In this document: positions 42,711 to 47,112 of the stretch, piece by piece | How positions within the stretch are numbered: the stretch's first letter is position 1 | Layout: each line of letters starts with the position of its first letter | Assembly (NCBI GenBank): GCA_039028615.1 | Contig: JBCCHT010000009.1 | Span: forward strand, 212,889-276,888 | Length of the DNA: 64,000 nt | Source of the DNA: Myxococcota bacterium | GTDB taxonomy: Bacteria > Myxococcota_A > Polyangia > Nannocystales > Nannocystaceae | Direction of reading: 5' to 3' | Notes under the pieces: generated by a model | The model's database searches: none | What the model was told of the DNA's origin: nothing | Seen by the model: only the letters and a program-made list of their open reading frames with translations | Made by a program: the position numbers and the translations under genes

Positions 42711-44510
42711 ATGGCTTGCACTGCGTTGTCGAGGGGACTGGGCGTACTGGCACTGAGCGCGGCCGTTGTCGTGGCTGCGCCCGGGGAGCGGGTGGCTTCG
42801 GCGTGCGGTGGCACCTTCTGCGACGCCGGCCCCACCGCGATGCCCGTCGAGCAGACGGGCGAGACCATCGTGTTCGCGGTCGACGACACGCACGTCGAGG
42901 CGCACATCCAGATCGCCTACGACCCGGAGACGGAGGCCTCGCAGTTCGCCTGGGTCGTGCCCGTGACGGCGTTGCCCGAGTTTTCCGTCGGCTCGCAGGA
43001 CTTCATCGCCCGCCTGCTGGACGCCAGCGTGCCCTCGTACGGTCGCAGCAACTGGAACGAGCCCTGCGGCAGCGCCGATGACGGTGACTTCGACGACAGC
43101 TGTGACGGCGGGGCCGGCGAAGGCGGCGACGCCGAGGGCGAGCGCTTCGACATCGGGAGCGGGCCCGACGGTGGGGCCGAGCCCGAGGTCGTGCTCTCGG
43201 AGACGGTGGGTGCATTCGAGGTGTACGTGCTCGACGGCGGCACGGCCCAGGGCGTGATGGACTGGCTGAGCGCCAACGATTTTCAGCAAGACGAGGCGGC
43301 CACGCCCATCCTGGAGGAGTACCTGGCCGAGGGGCACCTGTTCGTGGCGTTTCGCTTGGCCACCGACGCCGAGGCCTCGGAGATCCACCCCATCGTGCTG
43401 CGCTACGAGGGGCAGGCCCCCTGCGTACCGATTCGTCTCACGCGCATCGCGGCCCAGGACGACCTCGAGATTCGGACGCTCTTTCTCGGCGACCATCGCT
43501 TCGCCTCCTCGAACTACCCGCAGGTCACCCTCAACCGGCTGAAGATCGACTGGATGAACTCGGGGACGAACTACCGCGAGGTGGTCTCGATGGCGCTGGA
43601 CGAGCCAGGGGCCGATGGACACGGCTTCATCACCGAGTACGCCGGGCCTAGCGACATCGTCTCCAGCGACGGGTTGCTCGGTGAAGCCTGGGACCCGATG
43701 CCCTTCACGATGGCCGAGACGCCCGGGCTCGCGGTGGAGCTGCTGCTCGACCAGCAGCTGGTGCACGACTGGACTGGCATCTGCGAGGGGCAGCATCCGC
43801 TGGTGGCCGGGCTCGTCGCGCAGCACCTGCCCACGCCGCCGGACGTGCCGTTTTCCGACCTGTGCGACGACCCGCTGGGGTTCGCCAACACCGTGGACCC
43901 CGAGGCCTGGGACGGCGCCGCGTTTGCGGCTGACTTCGAGGCGCGGATCATCGTGCCCACCGTCCATGCGATCGAACTGCTGGATACTTGGCCTTACCTC
44001 ACCCGTCTGTACACGCTGCTGTCTCCGCACGAGATGACCGTGGACCCCATGTTCCACGCCACGCCCGAGCAGCCGGAGTCCACGAGCCTCACGCTGCAAG
44101 GCTCCCGCAACCGGTTTTGCGATGGGCACACCACCTTCGAGGTGCCGGGCGGGCGACTCGTTCATCTGCCCCAGCAAAACCTGTGGCCCGACATCCTTCC
44201 CGAGCTGATGCCCTGGGCCGAGCGCATCGAGTTTCTGCCCGCGGCGGGAGCTCCCATCGTCGAAGTGGACAACACCGAGTCGATCGAGGGGGTGCTCGCG
44301 GCGTGGCACGAGCAGGTCGGTGACCCGCGACCTCGTAGCTCGATGGCCTGCGGCGACGAGAGTGACTCGGGTCAGGTGCCGACGACGAGCAGCGGCGGGC
44401 CGGGGGCGGATGCGATCGACGGCGGCTGTGGCTGTCGCAGCTCCGACTCCGCCCCGCTCGGGCTCGCCGTGTTCGCTCTGACGTTGCTCGGCCTGCGTCG
44501 TCGCGAGTGA
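42711..44510 (+). CDS. DUF2330-domain protein with MYXO-CTERM tail
   Basis: ACGGTFCD..VEQTGETIVF, FAWVVPV, PIRLTRIAA, LTRLYT; GGCGCRS..LLGLRRR. Confidence 0.88.
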   Translation: MACTALSRGLGVLALSAAVVVAAPGERVASACGGTFCDAGPTAMPVEQTGETIVFAVDDTHVEAHIQIAYDPETEASQFAWVVPVTALPEFSVGSQDFIARLLDASVPSYGRSNWNEPCGSADDGDFDDSCDGGAGEGGDAEGERFDIGSGPDGGAEPEVVLSETVGAFEVYVLDGGTAQGVMDWLSANDFQQDEAATPILEEYLAEGHLFVAFRLATDAEASEIHPIVLRYEGQAPCVPIRLTRIAAQDDLEIRTLFLGDHRFASSNYPQVTLNRLKIDWMNSGTNYREVVSMALDEPGADGHGFITEYAGPSDIVSSDGLLGEAWDPMPFTMAETPGLAVELLLDQQLVHDWTGICEGQHPLVAGLVAQHLPTPPDVPFSDLCDDPLGFANTVDPEAWDGAAFAADFEARIIVPTVHAIELLDTWPYLTRLYTLLSPHEMTVDPMFHATPEQPESTSLTLQGSRNRFCDGHTTFEVPGGRLVHLPQQNLWPDILPELMPWAERIEFLPAAGAPIVEVDNTESIEGVLAAWHEQVGDPRPRSSMACGDESDSGQVPTTSSGGPGADAIDGGCGCRSSDSAPLGLAVFALTLLGLRRRE

Positions 44511-44560
44511 CGACTCGACATGGTTGTCGTCCGCTCCCCCAACAAACGACATTTCTTCGC

Positions 44561-44588
44561 TAGACACCAACGAGCTGCGTGCTAGCTT
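44561..44588 (+). promoter_or_regulatory. Sigma70-like promoter for the leader/tRNA unit
   Basis: TAGACA (44561-66), 16-nt spacer, extended -10 TGc-TAGCTT (44580-88). Confidence 0.55.
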
Positions 44589-44600
44589 CCCCGGGTCGCC

Positions 44601-44702
44601 ATGTTGCGTTTCCCGACAGAGCTCTCGACGAATGCGGTCTGCACCGCAGGGGTCGTCGTGCTCATCGGATGTCAGCAGCAATGTGCGTGCGTCTGCGGGT
44701 AG
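44601..44702 (+). CDS. Putative Cys/Gln-rich leader peptide MLRFPTELSTNAVCTAGVVVLIGCQQQCACVCG
   Basis: Hand-translated 33-codon ORF, too short for the ORF track; TGT CAG CAG CAA TGT GCG TGC GTC TGC precedes the final Gly and TAG stop; upstream of tRNA-Cys and tRNA-Gln. Confidence 0.6.
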   Translation: MLRFPTELSTNAVCTAGVVVLIGCQQQCACVCG

Positions 44703-44813
44703 TCATCGTCTCTCCACCCACGGGGGCATGGCTGCAACCCGCATGAGTGGGTGAACGAGCCTGTTCGACGATCGTGGTGCTGCGGCATCGCGACCGTGCT
44801 GGTTCGACAATTT

Positions 44814-44890
44814 GGCGTGGTAACCCAATTGGCCGGGTATTCGGTTGCAACCCGAAACGAATGCAGGTTCGAGTCCTGTCCACGCCTCCA
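44814..44890 (+). tRNA. tRNA-Cys (GCA)
   Basis: Acceptor GGCGTGG/CCACGCC, D stem ACCC/GGGT, anticodon arm TTCGG-TTGCAAC-CCGAA, T loop TTCGAGT, U73, encoded CCA. Confidence 0.93.
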
Positions 44891-44892
44891 AT

Positions 44893-44964
44893 TCGAGAGT
44901 GGTCCAACGGTTAGGGCATCCGGCTTTGATCCGGAAGATCGGGGTTCGATTCCCTGCTCTCGAG
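44893..44964 (+). tRNA. tRNA-Gln (UUG)
   Basis: Acceptor TCGAGAG/CTCTCGA (U1-A72), D stem GTCC/GGGC, TCCGG-CTTTGAT-CCGGA, T loop TTCGATT, G73; followed by CCG rather than CCA. Confidence 0.92.
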
Positions 44965-45015
44965 CCGACGCCATGGGACGCCGGGCGAGCGATGTGTTGC
45001 GCTCGCCCGGTGTCC

Positions 45016-47112
45016 CTAGGGCAGCGTGGCCAAGCGTCCGACTTCGTCGCTGCCGTTCGGTCCCGGGTACCGGCTGTTGAAGCTCAGGCCCTTGCCGTCG
45101 GAGGTGAAGCGCGGGGACGAGTGGTCGGCCTCGGGGTTGTTCGACACGGTCGTCTTGGCACCGTCGGCGAGGGCCATGACCTCGAGCGTGTGCGAAGCAT
45201 TGCCCGAGACATAGACGACATGCGTGCCCTGAGGCGACAGCGCGAACGAGGTCGCGCCCTCGAAGTCGAGGCTCTTGCTGGTGAACTGGTCCGCGCTCAG
45301 GGCAGCCACGGCGTTACCCCAGGGGACGAAGGCAGGGCGAAGCAGGGGCTCTTCGGGAGCTTGCTGGGTCGGATCGACCTCGGCCCCGTCCGTGGGCGGG
45401 GCAGCGGCCGGCGTGGGCGCCTGCGCTTCGACGCCGGCCTCTGCGGCTGCCTTGGCGGCGGCTTCGGCTGCGAGCGCGGCCGCATCGGCTTCGGCCAGCT
45501 TGGCGAAGGTGGGCTCGGCGGCGCTGAACAGCGACGCCACGTCCTGCGAAGACTGGACGCGCACCACGGACTCGCTCAGACCGTGCACGGCCAGCAGGTC
45601 GATTGTCTTCGAGCCGGGGACGCTGCGTAGGTTGTAGGCAGTGGGCTCGTCGTCGATCAGCGTGCCCGGGATCGCGACGATGCGCTGATCCTCGATTCGC
45701 ACCACGTACACCCAGGCCTGCTCGGGCGGCGGAGGAGGCGGGGGCGGGGGCTCGGCCTGAGCTTCGGTCCCTTCGGCCTCGGGGTCCTCCTCGGCCAGGC
45801 CGAAGTCGTCGGAGTAGGGGTCGTACTCCGGCTCCTCGATCTCGGGCGGATCCCAGCGGCACGAGATGGCGAAGTGCTTGTCGTCCAGCCACTCGGGGTC
45901 GCCGATGAACGAGCAGCCCGGCATCTGGATGTCCACGGGCGCGTCGCCGTCGACGCTATGGACGTTGACCCACAGAGCTTCGTCGTTGGAGGCCGGTCGC
46001 AGCACGCGGTGGTCGGGGCCCACCGAGCCCCAGGAGTGCTCGGGCCCCGCGAGCGCGGGAATCTTGCCCTTGCGGGTGAACTCGCAGGCGCCCTTGCTCT
46101 CGTCCAAGATCCACAGCTCCACGTTGGGCCCGCTGTCGACCATCATCACGTTGCCGGCCGCGTTCAGCTGGTACGAGTTTCGACCGTCGGTCAGCGTGCC
46201 GCCGCGCAGGGACTTGCAGCGCTTGCGCTCGCTCAGGTCGGTCTGACCCGGCGGCAGGTACCAAAGCTCGAGGCCGGCGGTCGCCTCGAAGTGCACGTCG
46301 GGGTCCCAGCCGTCGACCAGCCGCACGCCCGCGGTGACGGCCAGCGTGGTGCCGTCGGCCAGGGCGTAGGCCTCGGTGCTCTCGAGGGGCCCGGCGAGCA
46401 CGGCCGCGGCCGGCTTCTGCTGCTCGTCGTCGACGAGCCGCTCGGTGCGGGCCCGCAGCTCCTTGAGGCTCTTGCGGTCGAGCATCGCGTAGGCCCCGTG
46501 CAGGTCCACCGCGGCCTTGATGCTGTTGTGAAGCTCGACCGCGTCGATGGGCAGGCGCGACTCGGCAAAGAGCGTGCTGGCGAGCTTTTCCTGGATGAAC
46601 CCTGCCCGCAGGATGACCGCGTAGTCCGGGTACTCGATCTCGCTGGCGTTGGGGTCGACGGTGGCTCGCGGCGGCTTGCCGAGCTCACCCACCGTGAACA
46701 CGGCCCACTCGGTCTCCTTGGTGATGTCGTCCGAGTCGCCGGTCAGCTGGAGCGGGGAGCCGTGGCTCAGGGGCTCGTGGACGGCGACGTAGCCGTAGCC
46801 CTTCATGTCGGCCAGGTGCACGATGGCCTCCAGGCCTTCGCCCGAGGCGCCTTCCTTGCTGCCCTCGGCTGCCAGGTCGTCGAAGGTGCCCTGGCGGGCA
46901 TCGAAGCCCAGGTCGGTCAGCGTGGTCGCGGTGCCTTCGTCTCCGCCCACCACCAGAATCTTGCGCGGATCCTCGGCCGCACCGACGGGCCCGGCCGGTC
47001 GCGTGAACCACCAGGCGGCGCCTCCGATGATCCCGACGGCCAGCAGGCCCGCGAAGATCTTCGGCCCCTTGGGGCGCACCATTTCGAGGTTCGTCAACGA
47101 GGCATCGGACAT
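45016..47112 (-). CDS. Membrane-anchored hypothetical protein with TolB-like propeller remnants
   Basis: N-terminal TM IFAGLLAVGIIGGAAWWF; FALSPQG and PRFTSDGKGLSF blades. Confidence 0.75.
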   Translation of the reverse strand: MSDASLTNLEMVRPKGPKIFAGLLAVGIIGGAAWWFTRPAGPVGAAEDPRKILVVGGDEGTATTLTDLGFDARQGTFDDLAAEGSKEGASGEGLEAIVHLADMKGYGYVAVHEPLSHGSPLQLTGDSDDITKETEWAVFTVGELGKPPRATVDPNASEIEYPDYAVILRAGFIQEKLASTLFAESRLPIDAVELHNSIKAAVDLHGAYAMLDRKSLKELRARTERLVDDEQQKPAAAVLAGPLESTEAYALADGTTLAVTAGVRLVDGWDPDVHFEATAGLELWYLPPGQTDLSERKRCKSLRGGTLTDGRNSYQLNAAGNVMMVDSGPNVELWILDESKGACEFTRKGKIPALAGPEHSWGSVGPDHRVLRPASNDEALWVNVHSVDGDAPVDIQMPGCSFIGDPEWLDDKHFAISCRWDPPEIEEPEYDPYSDDFGLAEEDPEAEGTEAQAEPPPPPPPPPEQAWVYVVRIEDQRIVAIPGTLIDDEPTAYNLRSVPGSKTIDLLAVHGLSESVVRVQSSQDVASLFSAAEPTFAKLAEADAAALAAEAAAKAAAEAGVEAQAPTPAAAPPTDGAEVDPTQQAPEEPLLRPAFVPWGNAVAALSADQFTSKSLDFEGATSFALSPQGTHVVYVSGNASHTLEVMALADGAKTTVSNNPEADHSSPRFTSDGKGLSFNSRYPGPNGSDEVGRLATLP

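Follow-up and report, generated by a model that had tools for sequence, protein, structure and literature searches.

Short open reading frames (ORFs) act as sensors in the classical attenuators, among them trpL, hisL, pheL, thrL, leuL, ilvL and the pheM leader of pheST. T-box riboswitches have no ORF and bind uncharged tRNA directly, and in tnaC and other Rho-dependent leader switches a ribosome stalled near the end of the ORF changes factor-dependent termination. To our knowledge, leader peptides govern amino-acid biosynthesis, transport or synthetase genes, not tRNA genes. Here we analysed a 64,000-nucleotide stretch of a Nannocystaceae genome (Myxococcota; assembly GCA_039028615.1, contig JBCCHT010000009.1, positions 212,889 to 276,888; hereafter the window), in which a 33-codon ORF precedes extra copies of the tRNA-Cys and tRNA-Gln genes. 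Comparison of this locus with its relatives makes it, on balance, likely that the ORF is a translated leader sensing the supply of exactly the tRNAs encoded behind it, and not a protein gene proper.

The locus shares with the classical attenuators a short ORF rich in codons for the sensed amino acids. In the commonest type of related leader, the stop codon also lies beside an RNA segment with two predicted pairings, between which ribosome position might choose. Unlike in those systems, tRNA genes stand behind the leader in place of biosynthetic or synthetase genes, a single leader would report up to six amino acids, and there is neither a hairpin with a U-tract terminator nor a fourth segment. 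Because no covarying terminator partner was found, the four-segment arrangement of the classical attenuator is lacking. The system is a variant of leader-peptide control that departs from it in two defining features, the intrinsic terminator and the biosynthetic or synthetase target. Like a T-box, it would be a cis-acting RNA leader reading the state of a specific tRNA, but it contains an ORF and the leaders gave no T-box match in Rfam. Like tnaC, it would act without an intrinsic terminator, whereas the stall signal would be tRNA supply and not a small molecule, and the C/G ratio of the leader spacers is only 1.14.

Two described systems come closer in their parts. Polycysteine leaderless short ORFs of mycobacteria are described as cysteine-responsive attenuators of downstream genes (bioRxiv 10.1101/834739). 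Our locus resembles them in having a short ORF rich in Cys codons at or near the 5′ end of the transcript; it differs in that tRNAs, and not the 'operonic gene expression' of the preprint's title, lie downstream, that Gln is included, and that the host belongs to another phylum. In Anabaena, two papers describe the trn operon as an inducible array of supernumerary tRNAs, the L-array, which is induced when translation is impaired (PMC8421152) and is controlled by the protein repressor TrcR (PMC10272220); neither text mentions a leader peptide, attenuation or a small ORF. The division of tRNA genes into a housekeeping set and an extra subset recurs here, where 25 of 25 leader-led tRNAs are redundant. 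In contrast to Anabaena, the arrays here are short (2-16 genes) and scattered, each with its own leader. Our literature search, which left most subscription journals outside its reach, returned no description of leader ORFs before tRNA genes.

The Cys/Gln leader module and its conservation

The source genome (G000) comprises 12.3 Mb in 94 contigs with 86 predicted tRNA genes. An initial annotation, made from the letters of the window, had placed a 33-codon ORF, a spacer, tRNA-Cys(GCA) and tRNA-Gln(UUG) in this order, and we found all of them as described. The ORF, with its TAG stop, occupies 44601-44702 on the forward strand (peptide MLRFPTELSTNAVCTAGVVVLIGCQQQCACVCG). It is followed after 111 nt by the extra copies of tRNA-Cys(GCA) (44814-44890, +) and of tRNA-Gln(UUG), which has no encoded CCA (44893-44966, +); both were called by ARAGORN and by the Rfam tRNA model, with Rfam scores of 56 and 62 bits. 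All ten codons before the stop (C-Q-Q-Q-C-A-C-V-C-G, 44670-44699, +) specify Cys or Gln except for A, V and G. The genome has 208,834 stop-to-stop frames with 20 or more codons, and only three of them, the window ORF included, have seven or more Cys or Gln among their last 12 residues. The TGT and CAA codons in this cluster had been described as uncommon, and they are indeed minority codons: across 889 long ORFs, TGT accounts for 0.19 of the Cys codons and CAA for 0.15 of the Gln codons. At the leader, stop codons leave most of all three frames open, and length alone means little in G+C-rich DNA.

We found that the module, consisting of promoter-like hexamers, ORF, stop-codon hairpin and tRNAs, is present in five of the six genomes of the genus, with different flanks. 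The window type of tRNA-Cys occurs in 5 of 73 Nannocystaceae genomes, all of this one genus (four of its five other members). A scan of the genome collection for the window type returned only these four known relatives, and a metagenome scan with the tRNA-Cys pattern gave no matches. The five loci can be aligned from the promoter-like hexamers to the tRNA ends and nowhere beyond; tblastx of 17-kb neighbourhoods revealed no shared flanking genes and only short high-scoring segment pairs of 25-39% outside the module.

Conservation of the ORF and its Cys/Gln cluster had been proposed as a check on the initial idea, and both are kept. In all five loci the ORF has 33-35 codons, its start, frame and TAG position are retained, and a 3-nt indel keeps the frame, while the other two frames share neither a start nor a stop. 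The cluster contains codons that are invariant in every locus, namely CAA(-7), TGY(-4) and TGC(-2) counted from the stop. Conserved positions form whole codons separated by variable triplets. Outside the Cys/Gln codons the peptide drifts: between close orthologues, substitutions counted from the alignment number 7, 8 and 6 at the three codon positions. At the G002 locus (contig C149) an extra tRNA-Gln(CUG) lies between tRNA-Cys and tRNA-Gln(UUG), and the leader there reads CAG-CAA-CAA.

The sigma70-like promoter of the initial annotation was upheld in part. A consensus scan of 44300-45200 returned no promoter-like site, but the hexamers and their spacing are kept in the five loci: the -35-like TAGACA (44561-44566, +) aligns with TGGACA of the four orthologous loci, TGC-TAnnnn of the extended -10-like element (TGC-TAGCTT, 44580-44588, +) is kept in all five, and the pattern TGGACA-16-TGC-TAnnnn, with 16 nt between the two elements, aligns across the whole set. 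The ATG lies 12 nt past the -10-like element at the window and 9 nt past it in G004 and G005. Since the -10-like element is so close to the ATG, transcription would start a few bases before it and the ORF would be leaderless or nearly so.

The claim of a structured spacer fared similarly. The minimum free energy (MFE) fold and the consensus fold both contain a two-tier hairpin at 44692-44746 (+), which starts within the last two sense codons, has the TAG (44700-44702) in its 5′ strand and takes in the first 45 nt of the spacer. On its own this structure is weak (-25.4 kcal/mol, z -1.58, 11 of 200 shuffles equally stable), whereas the orthologues add compensatory changes at four inner pairs and one outer pair. 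Another hairpin, within the ORF (44626-44655, +), appears in the RNAalifold consensus (alignment A2, columns 39-68) and is partly compensatory. An Rfam scan of the window leader and six other leaders matched no family except tRNA.

A leader family before Nannocystaceae tRNA arrays

The initial annotation treated the locus as unique; instead, it is one member of a leader family. We scanned 350 nt upstream of all 60 tRNA clusters of the source genome for frames whose last 12 residues match the downstream tRNAs, and found seven arrays with a matching upstream short ORF, the window ranking joint top. The other leaders of this genome are MERFTTTTPMNTERMFGMGFMFGTC, before Met and Phe; MKRTTTKTHTTTNPVAMGSFTASNSRKFGSC, before Thr, Phe, Asn, Lys and Lys; MNRSAQTHRHHHVVIVHSMHDICPC, before Asp and His; MERFTNISTPASAQAAALWSLVRLAGEIVAC, before Ser, Ala, Trp, Cys, Val, Ile and Ser; a Ser/Tyr-rich ORF before four tRNA-Ser and one tRNA-Tyr; and an Arg/Leu-rich ORF before Arg and Leu. 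Four leaders of the genome belong to a common type with an M-x-R-x-T start, a terminal Cys and a 13-nt motif spanning the stop codon. The promoter of this type looks strong (TTGACN-17-TAAAC, with an A/T-rich tract upstream and A/T-rich sequence after the -10).

Of the 86 tRNA genes, 25 lie in the seven leader-led arrays, where they serve 17 amino acids. For every one of these 25 tRNAs another gene with the same anticodon exists elsewhere in the genome, at 51-79% identity. Other Cys(GCA) genes lie on contigs C27 and C36, the window copy being 66% identical to the better of them, and the other Gln(UUG) gene lies on C17, with 64% identity. The leader-led arrays are a redundant second tRNA set, in agreement with the earlier description of the window tRNAs as back-up copies.

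As the scan selects what it reports, we also took an unbiased step in which members were defined by nucleotide sequence alone. The exact stop motif occurs at 35 sites in 73 family genomes, compared with 26 for a reversed control, and 13 of the 35, four of which are the leaders of the source genome, have a same-strand tRNA array 98-335 nt downstream and an M-x-R-type ORF. A sequence-only model of the stop region of these 13 sites (R1; threshold E<0.01) gave 25 matches in the 73 genomes, 12 of them outside the training data, and 11 of these 12 are followed by same-strand tRNA arrays, the exception being in G076. The members span at least six genera of Nannocystaceae. Across 133 genomes drawn from 29 other families R1 gave one weak match, in a NUDIX-like coding region without tRNAs; R1 is sequence-specific, and unrelated leaders in those families would escape it. 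New members include MFRFTDHTTTTTTTTVVRGIIVAFMGVDMRPR, before Thr, Val, Ile, Met, His and Phe; an ORF with six Met codons, before two tRNA-Met; and MNRSTNTTAMRTIDTMVVIVVRPLVGDTTVC, before Thr, Thr, Thr, Asp, Val and Met.

In the layout common to the family, a short ORF precedes a tRNA array on the same strand by 65-335 nt, and the 5′ strand of a long hairpin includes the stop codon of that ORF; the window locus fits this layout. R1 has no match at the window locus, where only the start region resembles the common type. From these sequences the window leader is a separate subtype without the common-type signature. A model of this subtype (R2) found only its five training loci in the 73 family genomes, plus three weak matches without a nearby tRNA, and hence no paralogue serving another tRNA set. 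The cultured Paraliomyxa miuraensis SMH-27-4 (G005) carries one window-type and two common-type leaders.

Does the composition of each leader follow the tRNAs behind it? The initial annotation had suggested that the codon cluster might co-vary with the downstream anticodons, and in the wider family it does. We compared the 18 residues before the last residue with the downstream tRNA sets, using one representative from each of 13 independent, model-defined groups delimited by peptide likeness; the Thr codons at positions 4-6 of the G003 and G005 peptides, which lie in a conserved RNA-pairing region, were left out. The summed cognate z was 32.5, compared with 2.4±5.1 when peptides and tRNA sets were re-paired, and none of 500,000 permutations was as high. 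With the eight motif-defined groups alone, the observed sum was equalled in 5 of 200,000 permutations, in essence by the true pairing only. The window leader has a z of 3.76 for Cys plus Gln. Within one orthologous group, leaders with tRNA-Met in the array have three to four internal Met codons, compared with one to two in those without; for Thr the same group is less clean (5 and 3 codons with tRNA-Thr, 1, 1 and 3 without).

Cognate codons are also enriched in rare A/T-ending forms. Among them, 53 of 134 end in A or T, compared with 67 of 312 non-cognate codons of the same ORFs and 11% genome-wide, which fits a sensor tuned to be slow. In the common type an A/T-rich patch (RAW-WTN) at codons -5/-4, 10-15 nt before the stop, is kept regardless of the tRNA set and nearly always encodes at least one cognate residue. 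The patch may be where ribosomes chiefly stall, or it may act as a pause signal or a nuclease target.

Some members of the family show further features. In G022 (contig C76) a single leader stands before an array of 16 genes, Thr, Thr, Val, Asp, Val, Asp, Val, Asp, Ile, Ile, His and, after a gap of 443 nt, five Lys; we saw no obvious second leader in that gap. In G019 and G043 a T-arm-like hairpin, probably left over from a tRNA gene since lost, lies in the spacer that separates the leader hairpin from tRNA-Lys. The long G003 and G005 spacers showed no remnant of tRNA-Thr. In the seven-gene array of the source genome, the first 'tRNA-Ser(CGA)' (C27:172144-172216, - strand) scores 27.2 bits against the Rfam threshold of 29. 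Immediately upstream of it, the sequence resembles the 5′ half of a tRNA, with an acceptor strand matching the 3′ end, and the gene may be a tRNA with a long insertion.

RNA folding, proposed mechanism and rival explanations

All 18 leaders that we folded share one MFE structure, a long hairpin whose 5′ strand runs from the last two sense codons through the stop codon. Its energy ranges from -25 to -54 kcal/mol (z -1.3 to -6.7), and in eight leaders none of 200 shuffles was as stable. The inner stems differ in sequence between loci and keep their complementarity. In common-type leaders the codons that directly follow the ATG are also complementary to the stop region, with a mean of -16.8 kcal/mol in 13 leaders compared with -8.5±3.0 for shuffled partners. 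Cognate start-stop pairs beat re-paired ones (49 of 20,000 permutations), and one clear compensatory change links AAA or AAC in codon 2 to TTT or GTT past the stop. Since the start region and the downstream arm are both complementary to it, the stop region of the common type has two alternative partners, which are predicted to compete for it. In the window subtype, the five sequences yield predictions of just two pairings, the stop hairpin and a long-range one upstream.

We propose that each leader spells out in its codons which tRNAs are encoded downstream, Cys and Gln at the window, and that a ribosome would slow at those codons, many of them rare and A/T-ending, when the cognate charged tRNA is scarce. 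Because the 5′ strand of the long hairpin holds the last sense codons and the stop, the position of the ribosome, stalled upstream or resting at the stop, would decide whether the hairpin forms. Judging by footprint geometry, a ribosome at the stop would cover the stop region, and after a stall further upstream that region would be open to the downstream arm. Common-type leaders offer the 5′ strand another partner, the opening codons of the ORF. How much transcription continues into the tRNA genes would then depend on the state of the RNA switch, and stalling would raise tRNA output as a homeostatic back-up. The sensor side of this scheme is well supported by the sequence comparisons. Translation of the ORF and transcriptional read-through as the output are what we infer, and the sign of the response is assigned from function and not from sequence, with a slight preference for stalling raising, and not lowering, tRNA output. 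As there is no U-tract terminator, the termination step, if any, is more likely to depend on a Rho-like factor than to be intrinsic; the output could be Rho-dependent termination, pausing or something new.

A number of observations weigh against this reading, several of them at the output step. The terminator scan of 44300-45200 returned no terminator-like site, none of 22 leaders has a T-rich tail after its hairpin, and no segment of the spacer, which varies from 86 to 331 nt in length among leaders, covaries with the 3′ arm of the hairpin (mean rank 6.7 of 13, where 7 is expected). A classical intrinsic terminator was rejected on these grounds. With no U-tract and no terminator partner found, the element stays a candidate attenuator, as the initial annotation had put it. 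T-run terminators do follow other tRNA genes of the genome, in at least 10 of 53 clusters, and the spacer C/G ratio makes a weak case for a Rho loading site. On the sensor side, the window, Ser/Tyr and Arg/Leu leaders came from a scan that favours cognate residues, enrichment is absent from the Thr,Asp leaders of genus g14 (z about 0 to 1), and leaders of a single tRNA-Thr(UGU) match only weakly. RNA pairing dictates the N-terminal residues and the terminal Cys of common-type leaders, which makes these residues uninformative for the match. At the window itself the hairpin is the weakest of the five orthologues, and the subtype is single-copy and confined to one genus, tied to the larger family by the shared layout and a similar start region without significant alignment. 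In Paraliomyxa miuraensis (contig C122) tRNA-Gln is cut off after about 25 nt, and the leader retains three Gln codons; either the tRNA-Gln was lost recently or the leader still reads the housekeeping tRNA-Gln.

One rival keeps the sensor and reverses its sign; we regard it as rather doubtful. Here the hairpin formed on stalling would halt or end transcription and a ribosome at the stop would keep it open, so that the array would be made when amino acids are plentiful and be off when they are short, an amino-acid-specific counterpart of stringent control. With no downstream terminator partner the hairpin is the only conserved effector, as this rival would have it, and the 3′ ends of the leader-led arrays are likewise hairpins without a T-run (T-rich tail in 0 of 7); the leader-led and housekeeping sets may differ in origin or in transcript ending. 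The A/T-rich tracts upstream of the common-type promoters and the A/T-rich sequence after their -10 may also allow escape from ppGpp control. In the pyrE and pyrBI attenuators, the stop codon lies at the foot of a hairpin that the terminating ribosome melts, a layout that speaks for the reversed sign. However, a hairpin acting as terminator sits poorly with the lack of T-rich tails in all 22 leaders, given that the source genome uses T-run terminators elsewhere, and a shut-off under starvation would call for no such exact match between each leader and its own tRNA set. Nor would this model need the start-stop pairing, which is akin to the 1:2 pairing of classical attenuators.

Two further rivals do away with sensing. 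That the open frame is incidental to G+C-rich DNA, and the RNA an untranslated structured 5′ leader of the tRNA precursor, would suit the openness of all three frames and the fact that RNA pairing accounts for much of the common-type conservation. It is very unlikely in view of the start and stop shared in this frame only, the in-frame indel, the whole conserved codons spaced by variable triplets, and the codon-tRNA concordance, which no permutation equalled. The same conservation of the ORF, with its hydrophobic middle and CxxxCxCxC-like tail, would also be expected of a small Cys-rich functional peptide (metal-binding, membrane-bound or the precursor of a modified peptide) that shares the tRNA transcript. 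This is a most improbable account: substitutions are about equal over the codon positions, sequence is not kept outside the Cys/Gln codons, no neighbouring genes are shared among the loci, and the family-wide match between composition and tRNAs would be left without explanation. A modified-peptide precursor in particular was rejected on the lack of shared neighbour genes in the tblastx comparison.

If a leader that senses its own tRNAs is taken one step further, Nannocystaceae would hold a scattered second tRNA set, in which the 'bar-code' ORF of each array switches that array on only when one of its own tRNAs runs short. This wider view we offer tentatively, as falling somewhat short of probable. 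The shortage could stem from depletion, from cleavage by tRNA-targeting toxins or from translation inhibitors, and the output would pass through a stop-codon hairpin lacking a canonical terminator, a mechanism not yet described for leader peptides. If the leaders work as proposed, these large-genome predators would have direct, tRNA-by-tRNA feedback on tRNA supply, with a single short ORF integrating up to six amino acids, and it would be explained how supernumerary tRNA arrays are held in check. The leaders would also be natural, sequence-readable sensors of tRNA availability and could supply parts for the engineered control of tRNA expression. Given the strength of the comparative signal, the question can now be tested directly in cultured Paraliomyxa miuraensis.

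Neighbouring genes and minor features

The initial annotation had named attack by anticodon nucleases as one possible trigger. We found no link to such nucleases: the neighbourhoods of the window module and of two other arrays contain no phage, integrase, nuclease or RNA-repair genes. At the window the neighbours are a transporter, Sel1, DUF2330, PrkA and DUF444 genes, and around the two other arrays they are kinases, a hydrolase, TetR, CobW and AraC. A mobile-element or defence context was rejected on these ordinary chromosomal neighbours.

Between tRNA-Gln and a convergent 723-amino-acid ORF, sequence reading revealed a GC-rich hairpin without a T-run at 44981-45010 (strand not assigned). 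It is the strongest hairpin downstream (-41.6 kcal/mol in a 50-nt window), gives weak matches to miRNA models of Rfam on both strands, and is probably a two-way transcript end that works without a T-run. Elsewhere in the source genome, a 95-nt 'tRNA-Cys' called by ARAGORN (C58:11064-11158) has no tRNA-like flanks and is probably a false call within coding sequence. Upstream of the module, the DUF2330 protein (599 amino acids, 42711-44510, +) ends in GCGC, a hydrophobic stretch and RRRE, a C-terminus that resembles the myxobacterial sorting tag MYXO-CTERM.

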